From assembly GCA_965203805.1 (NCBI GenBank), contig OZ241917.1, forward strand, positions 1,344,001-1,408,000: DNA of 64,000 nucleotides, in the 5' to 3' direction. Both the position numbers and the translations under genes were made by a program. A model generated the notes under the pieces. It was not told the origin of the DNA. It saw only the letters and a list, made by a program, of their open reading frames with translations, and did not search any database. Below are positions 8,236 through 31,259 of the stretch, one piece after another. Every line of letters begins with the position of its first letter. Position 1 is the first letter of the stretch. The DNA comes from Candidatus Latescibacterota bacterium (lineage in GTDB: Bacteria; Latescibacterota; UBA2968; GCA-2709665).

Positions 8236-8268
8236 CGCATGGCCCTCTTGGTCTCGGTATTGTATGAG

Positions 8269-8354
8269 TGCCGGAGGCCGGACTCGAACCGGCACGGGCG
8301 TATCGGCCCGGGGGATTTTAAGTCCCCTATGTCTACCAATTCCATCACTCCGGC
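8269..8354 (-). tRNA. tRNA-Leu (anticodon TAA)
   Basis: Reverse complement GCCGGAGTGATGGAATTGGTAGACATAGGGGAC-TTAAAA-TCCCC, long variable arm, GGTTCGAGTCC, CTCCGGCA; CCA not encoded. Confidence 0.95.
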
Positions 8355-8472: not shown

Positions 8473-8547
8473 TGGAGGCGGCGGGCGGATTCGAACCGCC
8501 GAATAGGGGCTTTGCAGGCCCTTGCCTTACCACTTGGCCACGCCGCC
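8473..8547 (-). tRNA. tRNA-Cys (anticodon GCA)
   Basis: Reverse complement GGCGGCGTGGCCAAGTGGTAAGGCAAGGGCCTGCAAAGCCCC...GGTTCGAATCC...CGCCGCCTCCA. Confidence 0.95.
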
Positions 8548-18678: not shown

Positions 18679-19662
18679 CTAAAGGAAATTCTCGCCCGCA
18701 TGATCAGAGAACGAATCGGCGTCGCGGATGTATTGCATGACCGTAGCTGGATTCGTATGTCGGGTGACCGCCATGATTTTGTCCAGCCGGGCACGATGTA
18801 CTGCTGCGCTAGTGACGAATCCCGCGCGTAACGAATGACCGGCAACTTCCTTTGGGTTGAGTCCAATCCTTGAGGCATAGTGCTTGACAATCCGCGGAAT
18901 GTCTGAGTGATGTAGCGGTCTCCCCTGCACGTGACCACCTCGCTTCATTGATTGAAACAACGGTCCTGACTTGATCCGAGATGCTCGTAGCCACACCTGA
19001 AGCCGGTGAATGGGTCGGATTACACTTCCGTCTAGAATTGCTATTCTTTGCCCGCGCCCCTGTTGATCCGTTTTGGACCGGCGGATTGTGAGGAACATGC
19101 GTCGACTCGACCCGTTTTCGGGCTCGAGGAACTCGACATCGTCAACCATCAAGTCGCAAATCTCCGATCGGCGGAGTGCACCAGCAAATCCAACCGAAAT
19201 AATCGCAGCGTCTCGACGCCCAATAGTTGTATCAGGGCATTGGGAGAGCATAGCCTGTATCTGGTATTCTCTCAACGCTTCTACTCGCCGACATGCCGTA
19301 CCCTTAAGCCGAGCCATGCCCTTGAGTGTCGCGCGAACGATAGGATGGTTTGTTGGCGATGACTTTCCTGCTTCGGTAAACTTCCTGTTGACTGCGCTCT
19401 TGTAAAGGGTCACTGTGCCCATTGATAACACCGTCCCGCTTCGCGCGCTCGGATTTGTTGCCAAATGTATGAGAAACCCTGCCACTTGGTCAGGCGAGGC
19501 AGACAACGGCTCGACAATTTCAACTTCGTCGCAATATTCAATGAATCTGGACCACCCTTTTTCGTACGCGATGCGTGTATTCCTCGCCAACGAAGAGAAA
19601 AGGACATCGGTGTGAAAGCTCTGTCCAATCATGCCCGAGGGATTCAACGAAAACTCCTCCAT
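18679..19662 (-). CDS. Tyrosine recombinase (Cre-like, with N-terminal SAM-like domain)
   Basis: GALRRSE (R), SKTDQ (K), GHSLRAG (HxxR), TRH, MQYIR (Y); start could be GTG 19683. Confidence 0.9.
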   Translation of the reverse strand: MEEFSLNPSGMIGQSFHTDVLFSSLARNTRIAYEKGWSRFIEYCDEVEIVEPLSASPDQVAGFLIHLATNPSARSGTVLSMGTVTLYKSAVNRKFTEAGKSSPTNHPIVRATLKGMARLKGTACRRVEALREYQIQAMLSQCPDTTIGRRDAAIISVGFAGALRRSEICDLMVDDVEFLEPENGSSRRMFLTIRRSKTDQQGRGQRIAILDGSVIRPIHRLQVWLRASRIKSGPLFQSMKRGGHVQGRPLHHSDIPRIVKHYASRIGLNPKEVAGHSLRAGFVTSAAVHRARLDKIMAVTRHTNPATVMQYIRDADSFSDHAGENFL

Positions 19663-19716
19663 TAAGGTCCGCCAGTGTCTCACAACTTGGAGATGTGACC
19701 GGATCGAACAATGTGG

Positions 19717-20489
19717 TATAGCAATTTACTACGGAATTAAAACGGGCTATAACGCAGCATTTATCATTGATAACGACACTAAGAACGCGCTGGTCGCTGA
19801 AGATCCAAACTCAGCTGCCTTAATCAAGCCTGTGCTCCGCGGACGGGACATAAAACGCTATCGGGCGAAGTGGGCGAATCTCTGGCTGATAGCAACTTTT
19901 CCTGCTCTGACACTCGACATCGATGATTTTCCAGCAGTGAAGAAGCATTTGCTATCTTTCGGCAAAGCGCGATTAGAACAATCGGGTAGAACCCTTCCGA
20001 ACGGCACGAAATCCAGGAAATATACTATGCACGCTTGGTATGAATTACAGGATACTTGCGCTTACCACGCAGAGTTTAGCAAGGAGAAGTTGATCTGGAT
20101 GGACCTAACAGAACGAGGCCGGTTTGCCTATGATATAGAGTGCCTATTCTGCGTAAACACGGCATTTATAATGTCAGGTCCATCAATCAAATATCTATGC
20201 GCCCTGCTTAATTCAAACTTGGTAACTTGGTTTATGAGGAACACGGCCCTGAATTCCGGAATGGGCGTAACTCGATGGATTAATGCTTCCTGTAGAACCA
20301 ATTCCAATCCCACAACTTACTGGTGCAGAGCAAGTTCCGTTTACGCTCTTAATGGACCGAATCCTTTCAGCCAAAACTGTAGGTCTTGATACTGACACCA
20401 GCGATCTGGAAGTGGAGATAGACCGGATGGTCTATGATCTCTACGGCCTTTCTGAGAAAGAAATCGCCGCGGTAGAGGACAAATCATAA
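19717..20489 (+). pseudogene. Silent inverted copy of the methyltransferase C-terminal target-recognition (TaqI_C-like) domain
   Basis: IAIYYGIKTGYN.AFIIDNDTK...IKPVLRGRDI.RY...CAYH.EFSK.KL.WMD...VYDLYGLSEKEI; no credible start; 1-nt frameshift near 20290. Confidence 0.8.
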
Positions 20490-20639
20490 GTAAACCAACT
20501 TCTGAAACACTACCGGGCAGTTTATCGTTTGTTATCGCGTTGCTGACCGGACGAACAGGATGAAATCCGCTCCTCTACCGCTAAGATCTCCGTCTCTGTG
20601 AGTCCGTACAATGCGTGAACCATATAATTAATCTCCGCT

Positions 20640-23600
20640 TCAATGGCGGCTACGTCGGCATTTGGATCGGCCTCTTTTGGCTTCCAATATGCGGTCGACC
20701 AAGCAGACGAAAGTGTTTTGCTTCGGGACCGAAATTCTAGGTATGGGCAGGTGTTCAACAGCGAATTTTTTCCATTGCAAAAGCCCCATTCCCGTTGTCA
20801 ATGCGTTGTTTTTCATCAACCAAGTAATAAGAGTGCTGTTCAGAATCGCGCAAAGGTATTTCAGGGATTCACCCGTTAAGAAAAACCCTTTGTCGTTGCA
20901 ATATATCTGCACCTTGGAGTAGGCAAATCTGCCACTATTTGACATGTCCATCCAGAAGAGCTTTTGCTTAGAGAATTCCTCATGGTAAGCGCAATTACGG
21001 AGATTGTACGGTGTACTGCCTTTGTCTTGCCGCTCTTCCAGTTGGGGAAAGAACTCGTCCAAATGGTTCTTGATGGCTGGGTATTCTTCAATATCGACAG
21101 CGGGAACATTGCCGTATCCATTGTGCGTGTCAATTAGCCAAAGGCCTGCCCAAAGGACACTGTAACGCTGAATATCTCTGCCGCGCAGCAGCGGCTTTAT
21201 TATTTCTGCCGAGCGTGAATCTTCGGTTATCAATGCTTCCTTAGTGTCGTTATCAATGACAAAGGCGTCATTGTAACCAGTAAGAACCCCTCGGTAAATT
21301 GCTATATCCCAATCTTTCAACGGCGTACCTCTAGCCTGCATCTTGTCCATAACGCTTTGTTCAGTGCGTGACAGGATGCTCCATGGCTTTTCGCCGCTCA
21401 GACGCGTTTGACCCCAAAACCCTTCTGGAGGCGGAAAATCACCGGTAGGCAGTTTGTCAATGTCGACAGCGCGGCAGACATTGTTGCCGTTACCCTCGCG
21501 GAGAATCAGAACACTGGTGTCAACGATTGTGTTTACAAAGACGTCCTTACCCATCTCCAAAAGGCGAAGGGGCGTGTGTCGCTCCGAGAAATACCGACGA
21601 AGGGCCTTGCCGTATTCAGCCTTCAACCAACTGTTGGAGGTGATGTAAGCCAACAACCCCTGGGTAGGCTTCAGTAGTTGACAACCCTTCTCGTAGAAAA
21701 GCTGGTAAACATCCCCAGTACGGACAAAGGTTTCAAAGCCGGTTTTCTTGTATCGCTTTCCCAACTCTCCACCGTTTTTTTGCAATTGAATGTACGGCGG
21801 ATTCCCAATAACGACATTGAAGCCATCTTCGATTCCGAACATATACTTGGTGTCAAACCAATCCGCCTTCGCATTCTGATCATAGGACTTCCACCGGGCG
21901 ATTTTTCGAGCATCTTCAAAGCTTAAATCAAACTCTCCCTTTCGTATCTTGAACTTTTTCTGTTCTTCAATGCGCAGTTGTTCGCGGTGTTCTGCATTGG
22001 GTATTTGTGCGATTCTTCGTTCAATCTCCCGTTGCTCTCTCCCGACCCAATTTGCTCGTAGGGCTTCTAATTCACGTTCCAATTGATCTAGCAGATCTTT
22101 TTCCTGGCGGATATACTGGAGTTTTTTCGGGCGATTGTTGGCAAGAAAATACCTCGCGCGAATCGCCTCGATTTGCATTCGGAATTGCTGAACTTTGTTG
22201 TCTTGAAGAAGCGAGTGTACTTCGTAAAGCTTAAGGCCGACGAGCGTGTCTGCGGCAACAAATCGGGTCTCCAAATTCGGCAGCGGTTTGATCCCTAAGT
22301 TTTTTTTCTTCTCATCTGGATCCTGTTCAATTGCCAGTGAAATAAAAAAGCGCAATTTAGCAATCTGACAGGCTACAGGCTGAATGTCCACGCCAAAAAT
22401 GCTGTTCTGGATGAGGTAGAGCTTGCGCCCGAAGTCTCCGGAATACCGTTGAAAGGTATCGCTAATCTCTAGCAGTTGGGCGTCGCGTTCATGTTGGTTT
22501 ATATTCTCAAACGCCGCGTCCGCCTCTGCTCGCGCGCGTTCCCTTTGAAGTGCTTTCCAGCGCAGGTTGCGGGGGTCAAGCCTTCTAAGGGCCAGGGTCA
22601 ACTTGTGCAGCATGCCCATCGGAAACGCGCCGGAACCGACTGCTGGGTCCAGCACTTTCATCTTGGCAATGGCGTGCACAATGGCCTCCGCCTCGACTTC
22701 CTCAAAGAGTTCATTGGCATCATCAAATGCGTCTTCATAATCCAGCAGGTAGCGTAACCGCTCTTCCCAGAATTCCCCATTGCCGTCCGCTGGAAGAACA
22801 TCCTTCTTCAGCGTCGCCAAGACTACTTCATCCACCATATAGTCAACTACCGCGCGGGGCGTGTAGTACGAGCCGGTCCGCCTGCGCGCAGTGTCTTGAG
22901 TTTCAGGGTTGTACGCAGCGAGAAGGTTCTCGAAAACTTTGCCTAGCAATTCCGGATCTAGGGCGACTTCCTGCTCTATAGGTGTATTTTCCTCTACTGT
23001 GAACTTGTAATTGTTGAACAGCGTGATAAGCCCTTCTCCACCAAAAAACAGGTGATTTGGGATGGAATATTCGCGACGCTGAGCAGGGTTGTCGGTAAAG
23101 CAGTCGAGGCGCGCGCCTCCCGCCCCGACGGCTTCAAAGTCGTCCAGGCAGTCAAACAGACCGCCGTTGATAAAGGGCGTTTGCGCAAACAGTTCGAGCA
23201 ATCCATCCGGGTCGGTCATTTCCTTTCTGTATCGGTACACTGAAGGATTGCGGTGGTCAGCGCGATTCTGCCTGCTAAAACGACGTTTATCAATTTCGGT
23301 GTTGAGAGTAGCAAAAAACAAGTTCTGCAATATGGCGCGGTAGTAGGAGTCGCCTGTTTGGAGGTCGAAGTCTTCCAGTAGTTCGCTGACCTTCTGCTCA
23401 ATGAACAAGCCCTCGGCGATCAGCTTCTTTTCCTTAATGAACCAGACGAACATTAAGCGGGTAATGAGGCGGATCGTATGCTCTTCGGGTTCCAGAGTCT
23501 TAGCTTCGTTCGCAGGAAACTTCGCGTCGGAGACGGCTCTTTCAAACCAATCGAAGAGTTCGCCGTAGAACCGCCGATTGAGTTCCTCCGTATCCAATTT

Positions 23601-24266
23601 GTCCAACCAGGCGGCCAGCAGGCCGTCGAAATTGTTCGGCTTGTTGTGGAGATCCATCCACGTAGTGCACTCGGTCAGCGACAACTCAGCCAATATGTCC
23701 AGATGGGCGCGGTGGGGATTCTTCGGTGCAATCTCACGTATCAAAGACACTTTGCCCAATACATCGCGCGCAGGGTCGCGCTTGTGCTCTCGGCGGTGAA
23801 CAAAGGCAAGAGTCAGCAGATTGGATGTTGTGCGGAAGAGAACGACGGAGGGTTGGCTCAGGCGTTTGTTGATCTCACGGGTGAATCGCGCGTACTCCCC
23901 TCGAGTGCAGGTCGATTCCTTGAGTTCAACGGAGAAGAAGACGAAGCTTTGCTGTTGTCCCTTGTCAAAGGTAGCGGAATCAAATCCGATCGTAGGATGG
24001 GTGCTGGCGCCGACCTCGTCGCTTGTCACCTGAAAAATCAACTTCACGGACTCCGTCAGTTTGCGAAACTCCTCTTCGGACTTTGTGTTTTGATTTGGGG
24101 CCGGGAATTCACGAATAAAGTCGTCCACACTTCCTGGTAATTCCTCGGTGCGCTCGCTTTGATAGCCCAGCACTTCGAACAGGCGTTTCGCTGCCACCTC
24201 AAAGTCGTCATCATGGATTCCGTTTAGCGCCGAACAAATATCTTCTCTGATGTCTGGCTGTGTCAT
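20640..24266 (-). CDS. Eco57I-like Type IIG restriction-modification enzyme / N6-adenine DNA methyltransferase
   Basis: PFINGGLF, DPELLGKVFENLL, GSYYTPR, VLDPAVGSGAF (motif I), GVDIQ, VIGNPPY (motif IV), C-terminal TRD; apparent +1 frameshift near 20676 moves the natural C-terminus (to about 20522) out of frame. Confidence 0.88.
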   Translation of the reverse strand: MTQPDIREDICSALNGIHDDDFEVAAKRLFEVLGYQSERTEELPGSVDDFIREFPAPNQNTKSEEEFRKLTESVKLIFQVTSDEVGASTHPTIGFDSATFDKGQQQSFVFFSVELKESTCTRGEYARFTREINKRLSQPSVVLFRTTSNLLTLAFVHRREHKRDPARDVLGKVSLIREIAPKNPHRAHLDILAELSLTECTTWMDLHNKPNNFDGLLAAWLDKLDTEELNRRFYGELFDWFERAVSDAKFPANEAKTLEPEEHTIRLITRLMFVWFIKEKKLIAEGLFIEQKVSELLEDFDLQTGDSYYRAILQNLFFATLNTEIDKRRFSRQNRADHRNPSVYRYRKEMTDPDGLLELFAQTPFINGGLFDCLDDFEAVGAGGARLDCFTDNPAQRREYSIPNHLFFGGEGLITLFNNYKFTVEENTPIEQEVALDPELLGKVFENLLAAYNPETQDTARRRTGSYYTPRAVVDYMVDEVVLATLKKDVLPADGNGEFWEERLRYLLDYEDAFDDANELFEEVEAEAIVHAIAKMKVLDPAVGSGAFPMGMLHKLTLALRRLDPRNLRWKALQRERARAEADAAFENINQHERDAQLLEISDTFQRYSGDFGRKLYLIQNSIFGVDIQPVACQIAKLRFFISLAIEQDPDEKKKNLGIKPLPNLETRFVAADTLVGLKLYEVHSLLQDNKVQQFRMQIEAIRARYFLANNRPKKLQYIRQEKDLLDQLERELEALRANWVGREQREIERRIAQIPNAEHREQLRIEEQKKFKIRKGEFDLSFEDARKIARWKSYDQNAKADWFDTKYMFGIEDGFNVVIGNPPYIQLQKNGGELGKRYKKTGFETFVRTGDVYQLFYEKGCQLLKPTQGLLAYITSNSWLKAEYGKALRRYFSERHTPLRLLEMGKDVFVNTIVDTSVLILREGNGNNVCRAVDIDKLPTGDFPPPEGFWGQTRLSGEKPWSILSRTEQSVMDKMQARGTPLKDWDIAIYRGVLTGYNDAFVIDNDTKEALITEDSRSAEIIKPLLRGRDIQRYSVLWAGLWLIDTHNGYGNVPAVDIEEYPAIKNHLDEFFPQLEERQDKGSTPYNLRNCAYHEEFSKQKLFWMDMSNSGRFAYSKVQIYCNDKGFFLTGESLKYLCAILNSTLITWLMKNNALTTGMGLLQWKKFAVEHLPIPRISVPKQNTFVCLVDRILEAKRGRSKCRRSRH

Positions 24267-24432
24267 CGTCGATCTTTCTGTAAAACTCTTACCTGTTGGG
24301 GACGAGAGCGATTATGGTGGAACCGAGATTCGAGTGGCCTTAGTCACATGTGTACATAGCCACTTTCTCCCGCATTGTTGGCTCCTACAAAGATGCCCAG
24401 CACTTGTCTACGGTATCCAAGCGCCTTTCTAG

Positions 24433-26069
24433 CCTGACTAATTCATGAAACTGAACGGAACAGTGTTTTTGGAAGCAAAAAGTGATCTATAGAAGGGGAA
24501 ATAGTCAAATGACGTGTTGGTGACGGGATAATGCGTAATTTTGGGTGGTCTGTCAGCATCGAGGGGTGTCGAGTTCTTTGATTTGTGGATGGAAAGGACA
24601 GACGGATGCCTTGGTCTTACTTTTGGCGATGAGAAAGGGACGGCGGGGCCTGCGTGAAGCGTCTGCGTTATGGAACTGCCTTTGCCAAATTGCATAGGAT
24701 GGTGCCATAGAGGTGTTTCAAGGGAAATGAGGTTGGCAAATGGAGTTTGATTTTGGTTTTGAGTTCGGACACTCTCCCGGCGACTTTGAGGATGCGATTC
24801 TGAATGGTATTAAACTGCGCGTGCGTCCATTGGGTGGTCCGGAGTCCTTTTTCGGTAAGGGTGTGCATCAGGACATAAGCGGCACTATGCAGGAAGAGAC
24901 GGAAGTGATTGGCTTCGAAGGTGTGGCAGGAGGTACGATCGGAATGGAGGAAGGTTTTGTGATTCTTGATGAAGTTTTCCATCCTGCCTGCCTGGCCGGC
25001 AGACAGGCCGCGCGCACAATAGACGGTTTTGTAGAGGAATGAGGGCTGGCTACTCTTCAGGTTGGTGACGACAAAGCGTGTATTGGCTTGTCCGGAAGCG
25101 GTGATTTCAGCTTTGTAGATGATGCGTCTTGGCACGGCCCACGAATCTGCCTGGTAAGCGAAACTGGTAAATCGCTGCACAGGCTGTCCGGTCTCCCGAT
25201 ACTGTGCCTTTGCCTGCTCGATCAGCGCGTGTCCCCGTTGTGCAAGCCTGGCATTGCCCGTCTGTCCCAGCACGAAATACACCTCTTGCTCGTCGCAGAA
25301 GTCGTGGACCTCGGGACAGGAAAAATGGCCGTCGCCACGCAAAAAGAGTCGCACGTGCGGCCACGCCTCGCGAAGGCGTTTCACCAGTCGCTTGAGAACG
25401 GTGACAATCTGTTTGCCGGTAGGACGGGCGCCCGGACGCAAAAGCGTCGTGATCAGTCTTCCTGTCTGCCCTTCATAGATATGCAAGGGACAGTAACAGC
25501 GTTCACCATAATAGCCATTGAACATCGCCAACTGTTGACAGCCGTAAACCTCGTCGTCGGTGTCATCGATATCCAGAACGACCGCGTTGGGAGGCCGCTT
25601 GTAGGACGCGATAAACCCGTCCACAAGGGCCTCGGCAATACGATATAAGTCCCGGCGACGAATGCCGTTTTCCAATCGACTCATCGTGGGTTGGCTGGCC
25701 AACGGCCCCCCTGATATCGGCAACCGACCACAGGCCGCCTTGAACGCGGGGTCAAAGCGCAGCAAATCGCAATCGTTCGCATCTTCATACGCGCACGCGA
25801 TCTGAAACACACGCTGGCTGATCAGATCCGACATCGTGTGATCCCTGCCTGCGCCAAGTGCAGCGCGGCAGGCAGGCTGGTGAGCACACCGCCGTCGAAG
25901 ACGGCTTCCACCTGCTTGCCAGAAACACTTGCGAACGGAACTGTGAGTTGACTATCTTGACCTTCCACGGTAGTTTCCTCCTGTTTCATTGTGTTATGGT
26001 TATTCGCCTAACCATAATATAATACAATGACTTGGGTAAGGAAACTACCTTTTTTGTGAATAATTGGGG
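24433..26069 (-). mobile_element. Second IS1380-family element (1637 bp), degenerate
   Basis: IRs CCTGACTAATTCAT / GTGAATAATTGGGG; CTAG duplication at 24429-24432 and 26070-26073. Confidence 0.9.
24668..25968 (-). pseudogene. IS1380-family transposase, frameshifted and internally deleted near the N-terminus
   Basis: True start GTG 25968 (MEGQDSQLTVPFASVSGKQVEAVFDGGVLTS) is out of frame with the 388-aa ORF; about 33 codons are replaced by a palindrome. Confidence 0.85.
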
Positions 26070-26355
26070 CTAGATCTCCCTCAACTTCGTTGTTCTACCA
26101 TCAGAGTAACCGTCAATTGGAGTGGAAATTTCCAAATCACTGTAAATAAGCATATTAATCCAAAATAACGAAAGCTGCAATCCAAGAGTTACGACTTCTG
26201 TCAAATTACCATCAGATTACAATGATTCCCAAAACCGCATACATTTCGCGAGTCTGCCTCCATGAACTAATGCGCCTGCGAAGGTACCATCGCAGGGTTC
26301 TGTCACTACACCGCTGATTTGGACCCACAGATGACATACCCTCTGGCGTGATGCG

Positions 26356-27975
26356 TCAATTTGCGAACATTTCTGGCTCCAGGAGGTCGCGCGACCAACG
26401 GCGCAGGCGGCTGATTGCCTTTACCTTGATTTGGCGGATGCGTTCGCGTGTGAGACTCATCATCACGCCGATTTCCTCCAATGTATGGCTGTCGCTGCCA
26501 TTCAGCCCAAAATGCAGGCCGATTACTTCCGCCTCGCGTGGTGGGAGGCGCTCAAGCGCTTCCTCAATCAATAACAGCGCCGATTCGCGCATAACATCGG
26601 CATCTGGCGCGGCGATTTTTTCATCGGCCAAAATTTCGAGCAGACTCCGTTTATCCTCGGTGAAGGGTTCGTGGAGGGCATATACACTACCAGCACTCAA
26701 GATGGTTTCAATGATCTTTTCTGCTTGAAACCCTAGTTTCGCAGCTATTTCTTCCACAACTTCCTGGGACAGTCGTTCAAGTTCCGTGGTTCTAAATCCA
26801 GGGGTGTGCCCGTTAGACGGCTCGTGATGTAATACTCTTGATATGTCCTTTAGCAAGGCGACCCTGTTGAGTGGCAGACGTACAACCCGCACATGCTCGT
26901 CGACTGATTTCAATATCGCCTGGCGAATCCACCAAACTGCATACGTGATGAATTTATGACCCAAAGATCCATCAAAGCGGCCAGCCGCTTCTATCAAACC
27001 TATGTTACCAGCGCCAATCAAATCAGAAAGCGGCAGACCACGATTCTGATATCGTTTCGCTTCGTTAATGACGAAGCGCAAATTGGCGCAGATCATCTCG
27101 TCACGCGCTTCCATGTCACCATATTTGATTCGGCCAGCCAGTTCTACTTCGCGTTCTCTGGAAAGGGGTGTGGAATCAGCGACATCGTCGAAATAAAGCC
27201 GCAGGTTATTCTCCTCTCCTTCAGGAAACCTGGCCTCAGGCTCCACCTGCTCAAGCCAGTCCTTTGTATACCGGTAGAATGTCTGGCCGCGTTCTGTGGT
27301 GTCCATTTTAGATAGCCAAGCGTTCAGCAAGCCGTCACAGTTGCACGACCTAAGATTGGCGTTAAGCCATCTGGTGCACTCGAGAAGCGACAGTTCAGTC
27401 AGGACATCCAGATCGCCACGGCGTGGATTGTCCGTCTGAATTTCTCTACTCAACGAGGTAACTCGTTCCAGCACATCAAGAGTGATATCAAGCTTGTTAG
27501 GCCGGCGACTGATAACGGCGATGGTCAAGAGTGCTCCGGATCGGAAAAAAACCACCACTGGAACTTTCACTCGCTTGTCGATCTCCCTGGTGAATTCGTC
27601 ATATATACCTCGGGGATAGTCACCTCCCTTAAGTTCCACCGCGAAGAAAAGAATGCTTTGCTGCCGACCCTCTTCAATCGAAGAAGCCCGATCCCGTAGC
27701 GTTTTTGGATTCTCAGAAGCGATCTCATCGTTTGTCAGTTGAAAAACAATCCTCACAGACTGGACATGCTTGCGAAATGCCCGCTCATTCCTGGTGTTTG
27801 ATTTCCGTGCCGGAAACTCGTCGATAAAGCCATCCACATCGCCGGAAAGATCCAGGGTACGGTCACTCCGATAGCCGAGGACTGCGAGCAGGTCCTTAGC
27901 TGCCTCAATCAAATCGTTGTTTGATGAAGCTTCCAGAGAGGCTTTGATTCTTCCTCGGATATCTGACATGCTCAC
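26356..27975 (-). CDS. Fusion: R-M N-terminal domain (about 255 aa) plus RpoD/RpoS-like sigma-70 factor (regions 1.2-4)
   Basis: N-terminus colinear with the N-terminus of 20640..24266; then LRLYF..V...PLSREREVEL, ANLRFV..AKRY.NRGL..DLI..GNIGL..AA.RFD, F.TYAVWWIRQAI, TLEEIG....TRERIRQI. Confidence 0.85.
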   Translation of the reverse strand: MSMSDIRGRIKASLEASSNNDLIEAAKDLLAVLGYRSDRTLDLSGDVDGFIDEFPARKSNTRNERAFRKHVQSVRIVFQLTNDEIASENPKTLRDRASSIEEGRQQSILFFAVELKGGDYPRGIYDEFTREIDKRVKVPVVVFFRSGALLTIAVISRRPNKLDITLDVLERVTSLSREIQTDNPRRGDLDVLTELSLLECTRWLNANLRSCNCDGLLNAWLSKMDTTERGQTFYRYTKDWLEQVEPEARFPEGEENNLRLYFDDVADSTPLSREREVELAGRIKYGDMEARDEMICANLRFVINEAKRYQNRGLPLSDLIGAGNIGLIEAAGRFDGSLGHKFITYAVWWIRQAILKSVDEHVRVVRLPLNRVALLKDISRVLHHEPSNGHTPGFRTTELERLSQEVVEEIAAKLGFQAEKIIETILSAGSVYALHEPFTEDKRSLLEILADEKIAAPDADVMRESALLLIEEALERLPPREAEVIGLHFGLNGSDSHTLEEIGVMMSLTRERIRQIKVKAISRLRRWSRDLLEPEMFAN

Positions 27976-30900
27976 GCCTCAGCAACAATCAGCCAAGTGA
28001 TTAGCTCAAAGTCAGAGTTACTCGGTTTCGCAGATTTAATTGGGAGTCTGGATTCGCGTTGACCTTGAATACCAAGCTCTCTTATCTGCGTTGCCGTGTT
28101 CGCGCCACCGATTTCAGCAATGACCGCGTTCAACAGCTTGTCGTAACTTGCCATGTCTTTCCCGTTCTGTGTTTCTCGATCAAACTGATCGCACAAAGCT
28201 TGAATGGGTTCGGTCTTTCCTATGGCCACCGACTCGAACAACTCGAGCACTTGGCGCGCGTTGGCGCAACCGTACCTAATTTGTCCAGTGCTGCGAATGT
28301 ACGCCAGATAGTATGGATGAATCGGACTCGCCATTTTTTCCCGTCTGTCTTTAGTTGCGTTGCGCCGCCGCAGGAAAAATATCACTCCCCGTGCCGGCGA
28401 ATTGTCTTCGCCGTGGGTTACCGCATACGCACCGTTCGGCGTTGTTTCCAATTCAGTCCTATTTCGTTCAAGATAGCGTAATAACTGTGAGAAGAAATAA
28501 TCCAGCGTGAAATCACTGATTACGACGCCATCCGTGACTTGGTCCAGATCGAGGACTTCCTCGCGTAGTTGCTGAAGTTGCCGGTCTCGAAAATTGAGCT
28601 CCCTCTGAACCCCGTCATATGTGTCTTCATCCAGGGGATCATCAGCCCCGCTTGCCGCCGCGTCGGCAAGCGCCATGCGTGCCTGCACCCGGCATTGCAG
28701 GCGCAGATAGACTTCCATATCGTCCGTAGGCCAGTAATTTATCATCCTTACCGCTTTGCTGCGGCTTCCAATCCTGTCGATGCGCCCGAAGCGCTGGATG
28801 ATTCGAATCGGATTCCAGTGGATATCGTAGTTCAGGACGGTATCGCAATCCTGCAGGTTTTGACCTTCCGAGATGCAGTCGGTCGCAATCAGCAAGTCAA
28901 TCTCACCGTTGATAGCGCCATTACGACCACGTGCCCTAGGCGAAAAATTGGTTAGAATGGCGTTGAAGTTGCGAGCGCCAAACTTCGCATGCGTCACGTC
29001 CCCCGCGACCATGGCCATATTCAAGCCTAATCCTTCCACTAAGCTACCTAAGTTTTCGTAGAGGTATTCCGCCGTATCCTTGAAGGTCGTAAAAATGAGA
29101 ATTTTGCGATTCAACCTGCCGTCCTTGTCCGTCGTTGGACTATTCACCCTGTTTCGAATGTGCTCTTTGATTTTTCTCAGCTTTCCGTCCCGGTCGGGTG
29201 AGATCGTCCGGACTTTCTGCCATGCCGCGTCAAGTGTTTCCTTATCTGTTAGTAGATCAGCCCTCCAGCGTGGCAGGTCGAGTTCACGCAGATGATAGGG
29301 ATTGCGTGCTCGATTAACGAGAAACTCCTCATCGTCATCATCATCGTCCGGAAGGATATCGGCTTGAGATGACACCGCAGCCCGGGTTTCCAGGAAACTG
29401 TCGATTTTTGCGACCAAATCGTCAATCTTCCTCACGGTCCGCCCAAGTGTTTCGGATAATGAATGCGCGGAGCTTTCCAATCGCTTGAGAAAGTTCGTCC
29501 GAATCATGCCAATGAGAAATCGCTCACGATCCTCCTGGTTGAATCTAAGGGTCCGTTTTTCATCCGCCAGTCGTCGTTTTGCCTCTTCACTGGTAACGTA
29601 TCTGGAAGGCCTGTAGACAGAAAGGGCGAATTCTTCTATCTGTTCAGCGAGACCCTTATACGAGAGTCTACCAGTCAGGTCGGTACGCGGATGGTGGTTT
29701 TCGGGTTTTCGTTGTATTGGGAATTCACCAATTCGATCCATTTCGTCGGCGTAGAATGTCTCGATCTGGCGTCGCGACCGGGCAATCGAAATTCCGCCTA
29801 ACAATCCGAAGAAATCTGCGCCTAGTTGTTCCAGCAGTTTTGATTTGTCCTTCTTCCCAGTCTGAGCAGTGGTGTTCTCCCATGACTTAAATTCCCTTTG
29901 GGCTTGCTTCAGCATCACATCAATATTGCCGATTCCCAAGCTCTCGCGAAATACATCCTGGCGTCCTTCCGTCATCAGGTAAATCTGATTACGAAGATCA
30001 ATTAGTGATGTGTTAACAGGGGTCGCCGAAAGCATTAGCACCTTTGTCTGCGTACCCTCCTTTATCACCTCTTCCAGCAAACGGGAATAGCGACTGTGTC
30101 GTATATTGCCGTATTCATCTTTTCGAGGCGTTGAGTCATTCCTGAAATTATGAGACTCGTCGATAACAACCATATCAAAATTCCGCCAATTGAAGTTCGC
30201 CAGTTCGATTTGCCCGGATCTTCCGCTAATTCGGGTCAGATCTGTATGCGAGAGCAACGTATATCCGAAGCGGTCGTCGTCGAAGGGATTGTTCTCATGT
30301 GCGTTATAGGCCGGATACAAAGCCCAATTATCGTGCAGCTTTTTGGGACACAATACCAGCACACGTTCATTTCTCAGCTCAAAGTATTTGATAACGGCAA
30401 GCGCAGTATATGTCTTTCCCAAACCCACGCTATCAGCCAGAATGCAACCGTTGTGTCTAAGCAAGCGTGTAATGACGCTCTTTGCGCCGTCCTTCTGAAA
30501 GTTGTACAACGCATTCCAGATAGCCGTATCGTACAGGTGCGTGTCTTTAATGTTCTGATCTCTAGCTTCCCTCGCATCGATATCGTCCCGGAATAACTGA
30601 TAAAGCGTCTTGAAATAGATCAGTTCCGGTGAATGGTCCTTGCCGATCCGGTTGAGAGCATCGAGAACATCCGTTTTTGCATTGCGGGTTAGTTTCGTGT
30701 CTGTCCACAGATCGTCAAACCACGCGCCCAATTCGGCACGAATTACCGAATCAGAGGCTGCGAGGTTGATTTCGACGTTTGCCCCCTCCTCGCAGCCAAG
30801 TCCCCTCTTGGTAAAGTTGGAACTCCCGACCACCGCCGCTCCTCCATCGGACGATTCAGTTAAATGCATCTTGCCGTGAAGAAAGTTGGATATTCCAATG

Positions 30901-31259
30901 GATCGAATACGGACACCCCTTCTTCGCACCCATTCCTCGCACCTTCGCGCCAGGTATTTCTGTTGGAGAACATGATGCGGCGAGAGGCCGTCCTCCGTCA
31001 GGTCGTAAGATTTCGGCTCTTTCTCTCCCGGGTCCAATTCACCCACGGATGCCGGATCGCCGAACAGAAAGCGGACATCTTTTAGGCCTCGAAGTTCGGA
31101 TTCCAAAGCCTCATATCCGTAAATCGTGAAATATGCTGAAACGAGGCGGTACACGTCGGCATCGGACAGGTGCGTGCGCAGAAAATCGGCAACGCTGTGG
31201 CGCCGATTGTCAAGAATATGCTCGTACGCGGAGAATTCAGCTTTTTTCGTATCGGTCAT
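27972..31259 (-). CDS. PLD-nuclease-domain SNF2/SF2 helicase
   Basis: LHGKMH...GSSNFT (PLD HxK), LADSVGLGKT, IDESHNFRN, LSATP, ISEGQNLQD, QRFGRIDRIGS. Confidence 0.88.
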   Translation of the reverse strand: MTDTKKAEFSAYEHILDNRRHSVADFLRTHLSDADVYRLVSAYFTIYGYEALESELRGLKDVRFLFGDPASVGELDPGEKEPKSYDLTEDGLSPHHVLQQKYLARRCEEWVRRRGVRIRSIGISNFLHGKMHLTESSDGGAAVVGSSNFTKRGLGCEEGANVEINLAASDSVIRAELGAWFDDLWTDTKLTRNAKTDVLDALNRIGKDHSPELIYFKTLYQLFRDDIDAREARDQNIKDTHLYDTAIWNALYNFQKDGAKSVITRLLRHNGCILADSVGLGKTYTALAVIKYFELRNERVLVLCPKKLHDNWALYPAYNAHENNPFDDDRFGYTLLSHTDLTRISGRSGQIELANFNWRNFDMVVIDESHNFRNDSTPRKDEYGNIRHSRYSRLLEEVIKEGTQTKVLMLSATPVNTSLIDLRNQIYLMTEGRQDVFRESLGIGNIDVMLKQAQREFKSWENTTAQTGKKDKSKLLEQLGADFFGLLGGISIARSRRQIETFYADEMDRIGEFPIQRKPENHHPRTDLTGRLSYKGLAEQIEEFALSVYRPSRYVTSEEAKRRLADEKRTLRFNQEDRERFLIGMIRTNFLKRLESSAHSLSETLGRTVRKIDDLVAKIDSFLETRAAVSSQADILPDDDDDDEEFLVNRARNPYHLRELDLPRWRADLLTDKETLDAAWQKVRTISPDRDGKLRKIKEHIRNRVNSPTTDKDGRLNRKILIFTTFKDTAEYLYENLGSLVEGLGLNMAMVAGDVTHAKFGARNFNAILTNFSPRARGRNGAINGEIDLLIATDCISEGQNLQDCDTVLNYDIHWNPIRIIQRFGRIDRIGSRSKAVRMINYWPTDDMEVYLRLQCRVQARMALADAAASGADDPLDEDTYDGVQRELNFRDRQLQQLREEVLDLDQVTDGVVISDFTLDYFFSQLLRYLERNRTELETTPNGAYAVTHGEDNSPARGVIFFLRRRNATKDRREKMASPIHPYYLAYIRSTGQIRYGCANARQVLELFESVAIGKTEPIQALCDQFDRETQNGKDMASYDKLLNAVIAEIGGANTATQIRELGIQGQRESRLPIKSAKPSNSDFELITWLIVAEA

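Follow-up and report, generated by a model that had tools for sequence, protein, structure and literature searches.

A gene at 26356-27975 (minus strand) of a 64,000-nucleotide stretch from a Candidatus Latescibacterota bacterium (assembly GCA_965203805.1, contig OZ241917.1, positions 1,344,001 to 1,408,000; the whole stretch is called the window below) encodes a sigma-70 factor fused to a paralogue of the N-terminal domain (N-domain) of a neighboring Eco57I-type DNA methylase. This fusion is part of a two-component restriction-like module, made up of the methylase and a helicase that combines PLD and SNF2 domains. We find that the fusion is genuine and conserved, and that it is a selectively maintained accessory subunit of the module. 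The conserved arrangement of a sigma factor with the N-domain of a methylase may link DNA defense to transcription.

The fusion gene and its junction

The reading frame of the fusion is open over 539 amino acids. Residues 1-260 are colinear with residues 1-267 of the methylase, with 122 of 268 aligned positions identical (46%, E 5e-66), and sigma regions 1.2, 2, 3 and 4 follow. An earlier interpretation of the window, drawn from the letters and their reading frames without database searches (the sequence-only reading), had claimed colinearity for residues 1 to about 255. The alignment bears this out and contains all of the peptide pairs that had been quoted in its support. The proposal that an intact sigma factor follows the N-domain is likewise upheld by the order of the Pfam matches and by end-to-end alignment with SigA and RpoD. 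The methylase had also been described as the adjacent gene; the two genes do belong to one module, but they are separated by an insertion sequence (IS) of 1641 bp at 24429-26069.

The GTG start codon of the fusion overlaps the helicase stop codon as GTGA, as the sequence-only reading had reported. An alternative ATG at 27969 lies two bases past the helicase stop, is preceded by GAGG seven bases upstream and is the point at which the homologues begin. Because of this upstream GAGG and the start position of the homologues, the ATG is likely to be the true start, which would give a protein of 537 amino acids. The tight coupling to the PLD helicase gene does not depend on this choice, since the two genes abut with either start codon.

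A contig of run X4, from an independent study, covers 26384-28455 with 43 differences and therefore spans the junction between the N-domain and the sigma factor, which answers the concern that the fusion might be confined to a single assembly with an unspanned junction. The domain-architecture search that had been advised returned homologues covering both halves: in 5.8 billion proteins we found 48 other clusters (formed at 90% identity) with at least 96% cover, 43-75% identity and lengths of 521-570 amino acids. An assembly artefact as the explanation of the fusion is ruled out by these homologous clusters, by 15 other genomes and by the junction-spanning X4 contig.

Distribution and conserved gene order

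Of the 168 genomes of the phylum that were searched, 16, one of them G000, have a match that crosses the junction. They fall in three families; by genus these are 5 of 15 in the window's genus, 5 of 21 in genus g11 and 6 of 31 in genus g25. In a 17th genome, G102, the halves lie side by side in different frames, and the gene order is helicase, methylase, fusion. Five single genomes from other phyla gave no fusion match, and a second phylum (that of L019, 401 genomes) gave none at E<=1e-36, with five candidates per genome scored and these places possibly filled by sigma paralogues. When genome contigs were scanned with a pattern for the sigma half, 79 of 80 loci proved to hold ordinary sigma factors.

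To describe the surroundings, 20 kb around each fusion was taken and the proteins of the window were mapped onto these loci. The fusion lies 3' of the PLD-SNF2 helicase in all 15 other fusion genomes and 5' of the N-domain methylase in all 13 loci with a whole methylase N-domain. The exceptions to this second count are L128, where the contig ends inside the sigma half, and L130, where the methylase N-domain is truncated. Helicase and fusion overlap or are no more than 5 nt apart in the window and in 10 of the 15 other loci. Alongside the fusion only the helicase and the methylase are conserved, joined in 5 loci by a spare target recognition domain (TRD) and a recombinase. The island that carries these genes occupies different chromosomal sites in different families, and synonymous divergence across the families is low. 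The fusion is frameshifted in L119 and L120 (the same locus as L001) and split in L134, and the methylase of L131 contains an in-frame TAG. The frameshifts occur in metagenome-assembled genomes of a single contig; all these lesions may be errors of long-read assembly or may mark pseudogenes.

Selection on the fusion and its history

The ratio of nonsynonymous to synonymous substitution rates (dN/dS) was calculated for the 40 closest pairs among 14 intact fusion genes (532-566 amino acids). The N-domain, at 0.15-0.48, and the sigma half, at 0.19-0.36, are both under purifying selection; at the same loci the values are 0.10-0.14 for the helicase, 0.16-0.21 for the methylase N-domain and 0.12-0.20 for the methylase core. 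The relaxed selection on the sigma half that would have counted against the sequence-only reading is thus not seen. Its suggestion of an old and maintained fusion, drawn from two N-domain copies that have diverged and are both open, agrees with the 48 clusters, the 15 genomes, the single clade described next and dN/dS values far under 1.

In a maximum-likelihood tree of 54 N-domains, the 17 of sigma type form one clade (support 100/93) nested among the methylase N-domains of the phylum. Because there is a single nested clade, the tree points to one duplication followed by one fusion: a methylase N-domain was copied, and the copy became joined on that single occasion to a primary-like, complete sigma factor from within the lineage. 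In most close pairs, synonymous divergence (dS) is low for the fusion and the helicase (about 0.15-0.4) and reaches 0.5-2.2 for the methylase; the pair L121/L122 is mixed. Judging by this contrast, the methylase has seemingly exchanged alleles behind a co-inherited block of helicase and fusion; for L119-L135 the suggested breakpoint of this replacement lies close to the methylase start codon.

The sigma half

Residues 258-529 match, in this order, the Pfam families Sigma70_r1_2, r2, r3 and r4. Region 2 (52.9 bits, cut-off 24) and region 4 (54.4, cut-off 24.1) pass, whereas region 1.2 (21.3, cut-off 22) and region 3 (20, cut-off 25.3) fall just short. The NCBIfam sigma-70 superfamily model TIGR02937 is passed with 97.7 against a cut-off of 42.9. 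Over its full length the half can be aligned with solved chains of SigA and RpoD, the match to residues 99-360 of SigA (8x6f_E) having an E of 1.9e-45. It is therefore a member of the sigma-70 superfamily and, being colinear from region 1.2 to region 4.2, of the RpoD/RpoS-like groups 1 and 2. Its scores lie below the cut-offs of the equivalog models for RpoS (TIGR02394, 215 against 378.7) and RpoD (NF004208, 193 against 555), and Pfam gave no match to Sigma70_r1_1, so that the N-terminal region 1.1 of group 1 sigma factors is not recognized.

The nearest stand-alone sigma factors come from the same lineage, with 62% identity to one in L002 and 52% to the best paralogue in G000, and residues 253-330 are 78% identical to sigma factors of genus g25 in frames of about 285-355 amino acids. 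The helices of regions 2.4 and 4.2 resemble those of the stand-alone sigma factors of the lineage. These relatives, in frames of 286-365 amino acids, have no long N-terminus and the closest of them start near region 1.2, which argues that the N-domain is an addition and that the replacement of region 1.1 once proposed is not obvious. Region 3 is the least conserved and the worst modeled part of the protein, and in the homologues P0046, P0049 and P0050 it carries an acidic insert, some 30 residues long and tandemly repeated (alignment columns ~410-440).

The N-domain

The N-domain is N-terminal in every protein found. A profile search of 1.84 billion representative sequences returned 1298 proteins at E<=1e-3, of which 899 were at <=1e-10 and 474 at <=1e-30. 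Among the best 150 of these 1298 matches, 125 continue as a methylase, 5 as a sigma factor and 20 as neither, all of the last being 306 amino acids or shorter. When the protein search was scored on the N-domain only, there were 74 matches of 296-944 amino acids, 55 of them sigma fusions. Of the other 19, 18 run on as methylase and are truncated methylases; for the remaining protein, P0162, the match to the methylase is confined to the N-domain, and the tail could not be placed. Among the proteins sorted in this way there are only two architectures, methylase or sigma factor.

We considered an active PD-(D/E)XK nuclease as the nature of the N-domain and rejected it. E114 (G or V), K116 (W, R or N) and D83 vary, in both paralogues, in alignments of 41 and 37 N-domains. 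The term restriction-modification (R-M) domain, used in the sequence-only reading, is accordingly not warranted: the ExK-like motif is variable and no PDB entry matches. An AlphaFold2 model of the N-domain (pLDDT 78.7, pTM 0.77) gave 0 Foldseek matches in the PDB at E<=1e-3, and the sequence profile gave 0 matches in the PDB at E<=1; comparison with the ESM Atlas yielded no usable match, and tblastn of the N-domain against plasmids found none. Invariant in both paralogues are GY.S, FQ.T, TRE..KR, R157, W203, W220 and W240, while other motifs are fixed in a paralogue-specific manner (TREIDKR vs TREINKR, and PRR.D vs PHRAH).

The N-domain bears a weak likeness to DUF4391 (PF14335), a family of unknown function. 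This family is matched by 26 of 41 N-domains, with a best E of 6.4e-5 over profile positions ~25-131, at 17.8-20.1 bits and hence below the gathering score of 29.9. The DUF4391 search was silent in 14 control genomes and in the window's own genome found only the fusion itself, at 19 bits. Of the papers listed for DUF4391, none bears on the N-domain, as judged by title and abstract. By analogy with the interface domains considered below, the N-domain, with about 1300 representative clusters and a distant resemblance to DUF4391, would gain a likely role as a protein interface and not as a nuclease.

The helicase, the methylase and their locus

The module lies in an island of low GC content at ~12-32 kb of the window (0.47-0.53, compared with 0.63 outside), which is flanked by pdxA (33018-31999). 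In the direction of transcription, on the minus strand, the order is PLD-SNF2 helicase, fusion, IS and Eco57I-type methylase; 3' of the methylase are an inverted spare TRD cassette on the plus strand and then a tyrosine recombinase. The features are listed here, with the evidence in parentheses.

27972-31259, minus strand: PLD (HKD) nuclease and SNF2 helicase, 1095 amino acids, R subunit (Pfam PLDc_2, SNF2-rel_dom, ResIII, Helicase_C)
27211-27975, minus strand: residues 1-255 of the fusion, an N-domain paralogous to that of the methylase (alignment given above)
26356-27210, minus strand: sigma-70 half, regions 1.2, 2, 3 and 4, with stop codon (Pfam; SigA alignment)
26070-26355, minus strand: non-coding, upstream part of the original fusion-methylase spacer (homologous to the start of the 0.9-kb spacer in the same-genus loci L121, L122 and L126)
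24429-26069, no strand assigned: inserted IS, outside the system, with transposase frame 24668-25834 on the minus strand (Pfam DDE_Tnp_1_4)
24267-24428, minus strand: non-coding, downstream part of the original spacer (75-79% identity to the final ~300 nt of the L121, L122 and L126 spacers)
20640-24266, minus strand: N-domain, Eco57I-type N6-adenine methylase and TaqI_C/MmeI-like TRD, 1208 amino acids, M/S subunit (Pfam, PADLOC)
19631-20389, plus strand: inverted spare TRD cassette, TaqI_C (Pfam TaqI_C 2e-14)
18679-19683, minus strand: tyrosine recombinase, probable invertase (Pfam Phage_integrase 8e-16)

The helicase matches the PADLOC model 'HKD+Snf2' (C3a139, 5e-108), and its HxK, GSSN, Walker A and DESH motifs are invariant in 28 aligned homologues. 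Since these catalytic motifs are invariant and the motif of the N-domain is variable, the PLD domain is likely to be the nuclease of the module. The methylase matches Pfam Eco57I (2e-33), N6_Mtase and TaqI_C (5e-12) as well as PADLOC REase_MTase_IIG (2.7e-145), and its translation shows DPAVGSG and NPPY; the gene thus encodes a type IIG-like methylase with a TRD. An N-domain methylase is found directly 3' of a PLD-SNF2 helicase in most of 79 metagenome loci, where enough upstream sequence is present, and a sigma fusion in one of the 79 (L135).

The spare TRD and the recombinase make up a probable shufflon-like specificity switch. The same layout is present in L120, L124, L131, L135 and L142, with recombinases of 59-88% identity. 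In the window the inverted repeat between the spare TRD and the methylase is weak (78 nt, 71%, within 19400-21800), and TRD switching may have decayed here. A strict tie of the fusion to TRD inversion was rejected: no more than 5 of the fusion loci have the recombinase and the inverted TRD, and L142 has both without a sigma factor.

Between fusion and methylase, 8 loci have a spacer of 17-202 bp, and three loci of the window's genus have one of about 0.9 kb. In L120 it holds Schlafen/AlbA_2 and ParA-like genes (Pfam) behind a remnant of the helicase C-terminus, in L130 cargo of the same kind, judged by eye from translated frames, and in L125 a helicase remnant of 184 amino acids. These C-terminal helicase fragments, comprising the last 45-184 residues, lie just 3' of the fusion and 5' of the inserted cargo (L120 8714-8845, L125 10665-11213, L130 8872-9036) and are probably scars of recombination between paralogous systems. 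The junction on the other side of the fusion, with the helicase, also receives cargo. In genus g11 it contains HigB/HigA-like pairs and, in two loci, a reading frame of 560 amino acids that is AIPR-like, as judged by eye from translations. The inserts are as follows.

L124: 9172-9860
L125: 13027-15104
L129: 7698-9791
L131: 10881-11558

About 18 metagenome loci without a sigma factor have inserts in the same slot, some of them toxin-antitoxin-like and one Schlafen-like (by eye).

A model for the fusion and its alternatives

Our preferred reading of the fusion is a partner switch with three steps. In the first, the methylase N-domain would be a non-catalytic interface that couples the methylase (M) to the helicase-nuclease (R), an analogy taken from HsdM and BrxX, whose N-terminal domains are proposed in PMC12839542 to form an M-to-R interface. 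The N-domain is a candidate for this role because it would be the only part of the methylase dispensable for methylation and target reading and because it co-occurs with the helicase. In the second step, the paralogous N-domain would dock the sigma factor at the same partner, so that the helicase titrates the sigma factor and competing methylase releases it. In the third, the freed sigma factor, with its host-like promoter-reading helices, would drive transcription of the module and so tie the expression of R to the abundance of M, as a built-in controller with the task that falls to C proteins in type II systems. In favor of this reading we count the paralogy of the N-domains, the spread of the fusion, its constant place and tight coupling behind the helicase, the selection on both halves, the co-inheritance with the helicase, the single origin, the shared and paralogue-specific motifs, the two architectures of the N-domain and its place in systems with a helicase, and the complete, SigA-like sigma half. 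Prediction of a complex of helicase residues 612-1095 (cut from the 1095 amino acids), methylase N-domain and sigma N-domain gave a score of 0.00, which speaks neither for nor against binding. The ideas of the sequence-only reading, a tether of the sigma factor to the helicase or methylase and a decoy sensor for anti-restriction proteins, are likewise conjectural. We hold this switch, by which transcription of the module would follow the helicase:methylase ratio, as a tentative proposal with somewhat less than an even chance of being correct.

A number of observations weigh against it. Upstream of the helicases there is no common promoter motif across loci, and a scan of the region for sigma-70 patterns found 5 where 6.4 were expected. 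A TATAAT in the spacer between fusion and methylase has its best -35-like hexamer 20 nt away, the spacer is no more conserved than the synonymous sites of the flanking helicase and fusion genes, and in L132 it is just 17 bp long. The N-domain as a helicase interface is drawn purely from analogy. The fusion shows 2-3 times the dN/dS found for the helicase. Finally, 19 genomes of the phylum and 78 of the 79 metagenome loci have N-domain methylase systems with no sigma factor; as most systems do without it, the controller would be dispensable.

A first alternative shares the facts of paralogy, gene order and clade with the partner switch. The sigma factor would be held inactive on the helicase-methylase complex as a guard, to be freed when the complex meets unmodified DNA or is obstructed by a phage anti-restriction protein, and would then induce second-line or abortive-infection genes at other places in the island or genome. 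PrrC, which is held by the type I enzyme EcoprrI, is a model for this logic. Both junctions around the fusion are hot spots for cargo of suitable kinds (toxin-antitoxin, AIPR, Schlafen/AlbA_2 and ParA-like), and in the window a helix-turn-helix (HTH) protein, a PD-(D/E)XK protein and a 410-amino-acid frame lie downstream. However, no cargo gene is conserved with the fusion, the cargo varies from locus to locus with no common regulon visible, tblastn with these three proteins of the window found none of them in the 16 related loci L119-L134, and the DNA-reading helices of the sigma factor are not distinctive. We regard this alternative as unlikely. We give the same low standing to a related version, an immune signal relay in which the sigma factor is parked on the restriction complex, with the helicase-nuclease acting as an anti-sigma factor, and is released or activated by foreign DNA or a phage inhibitor. 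If that were true, restriction status would be read out directly as a change in transcription.

According to a second alternative, the partner of the N-domain, in the fusion and in the methylase alike, would be DNA or a small ligand in place of the helicase or methylase, and the fusion would be a regulated alternative sigma factor that moves together with the island and ensures that the island is expressed in a new host. The charged cluster TRE..KR and R157, invariant in both paralogues, could form a ligand or DNA site, and the varied chromosomal sites and low synonymous divergence across families are as expected for a mobile module. This explanation leaves unaccounted for why the N-domain is partnered only with this methylase and this sigma factor and why the fusion keeps a constant place inside the helicase-methylase pair, and it seems to us doubtful, a little more so than the guard.

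We consider it improbable that the fusion serves recruitment, bringing RNA polymerase (RNAP) to the helicase-nuclease or the helicase-nuclease to promoters for transcription-coupled restriction or the clearing of stalled complexes. The sigma half retains the regions that bind the RNAP core and promoters, and our helicase weakly matches RapA, an SNF2 helicase associated with RNAP. The RapA match is, however, generic to SNF2 proteins (E 4e-13, far under the cut-off), and host-like promoter specificity would aim the nuclease at the promoters of the host itself. Lastly, a non-functional by-product of recombination between tandem helicase-methylase systems, kept by linkage, would fit the recombining junction betrayed by helicase remnants behind the fusion in L120, L125 and L130 and the frameshifted or split copies in L119, L120 and L134, but is very hard to reconcile with intact frames in 14 loci, with the dN/dS values across both halves and with 48 other full-length clusters down to 43% identity.

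Relation to known systems

The relevant passages of Milman et al. (2023, NAR, PMC9881135) describe a PLD and SNF2 helicase gene beside a Cj0031-like type II/IIG methylase with programmed inversion of the TRD. The system treated there and the one in the window are alike in the PLD-SNF2 helicase, the Eco57I-type methylase with its TRD, the inverted spare TRD and the recombinase. Those passages mention no sigma factor, whereas here a sigma fusion lies between the genes, and the methylase N-domain of the window, unlike that system, has no conserved nuclease motif. The BR systems of PMC12839542, in the part of that paper concerned with them, are centered on DUF499; they are a different system and were rejected as a match.

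The sigma half also matches the C-terminal part of the profiles for MzaA (NF041931; PDLC02203), named 'MZA anti-phage system associated sigma-70 family RNA polymerase sigma factor', at 3e-35 (PADLOC) and 4e-57 (NCBIfam). In both cases a sigma-70 module is the C-terminal part of a longer protein of a defense system. The score is 194.5 bits against a cut-off of 800 and covers only profile positions 474-706, and the N-terminal ~470 residues and the partner genes differ. No literature on the role of MzaA was found, and the main text of the PADLOC papers does not mention Mza, sigma or HKD. Among the class 1 DISARM profiles, DrmD is matched weakly by the helicase and DrmMI weakly by the methylase, and PLD, SNF2 and an Eco57I-type methylase co-occur in both systems. 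The scores are nevertheless under the cut-offs (DrmD 144 against 610), the PLD and SNF2 parts are fused in one protein in the window, and among the 10 island reading frames scanned there is no DrmA or DrmB (DUF1998), a genome-wide search not having been made. Judged from its sequence, the helicase-methylase base would resemble a minimal, fused version of class 1 DISARM parts that falls outside the class.

Small HTH proteins or proteolysis are the usual means by which restriction-like systems are controlled. The C proteins of type II R-M systems are small HTH dimers that have no domain in common with their methylase. They resemble the fusion in being transcription factors that are encoded within an R-M operon and could set the timing of R relative to M; the fusion differs in being a sigma factor, and its control of the operon is conjectural. 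Partner switching between sigma and anti-sigma factors is similar in that sequestration would control the sigma factor, which for the fusion is again a proposal. Defense and transcription would be coupled in another way by a complete sigma factor that has one of its domains in common with the methylase of the same system.

Searches of full texts for DUF4391 or for sigma factors within restriction or defense operons brought up no account of this arrangement. The two-gene base system with an invertible TRD had been noted before, and the sole parallel found for the sigma fusion is the database family MzaA. The statement in the sequence-only reading that no such system was known holds insofar as no paper treats the arrangement; it has to be modified for MzaA, a defense sigma factor with a long N-terminal extension that is held in NCBIfam and PADLOC. 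The fusion would be a second, independent case, beside the uncharacterized MzaA, of sigma-70 modules recruited into defense operons, and the question of coupling is one that can be tested with three genes.

The inserted element and other features of the island

The transposase of the IS between fusion and methylase matches Pfam DDE_Tnp_1_4 at 2e-132 over profile positions 58-433 of 435, and its frame is N-terminally short or broken. CTAG is present at both edges of the element. In another X4 contig 26070 follows directly on 24428, with the 1641 bases between them missing, and this is the empty site; the IS is therefore a recent insertion of 1641 bp. Inside one of its ends is a sigma-70-like pair, CTGACA-17-CATTAT (24556-24528, minus strand), that faces the methylase. 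Three metatranscriptome runs share small parts of the stretch, X18 and X20 covering only the IS and short conserved bits.

Downstream of the recombinase, at 15791-18282 on the minus strand, are genes for an HTH_3 protein of 118 amino acids, a PDDEXK_1 nuclease of 300 amino acids and the 410-amino-acid frame mentioned above, for which neither Pfam nor NCBIfam gave a match; this group may be a further defense cassette. Three frames of 378, 148 and 345 amino acids at 11473-14143 (minus strand), also in the low-GC island, had no Pfam match, and those of 378 and 345 amino acids no NCBIfam match either. An Rfam scan of 11-33 kb detected no families. A second IS transposase of the same Pfam family, DDE_Tnp_1_4, is full-length (14255-15589, plus strand), and its protein is 59.5% identical to that of the 24668-25834 copy. 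Genes for tRNA-Leu (8268-8354) and tRNA-Cys (8473-8547) are situated near the far end of the island.

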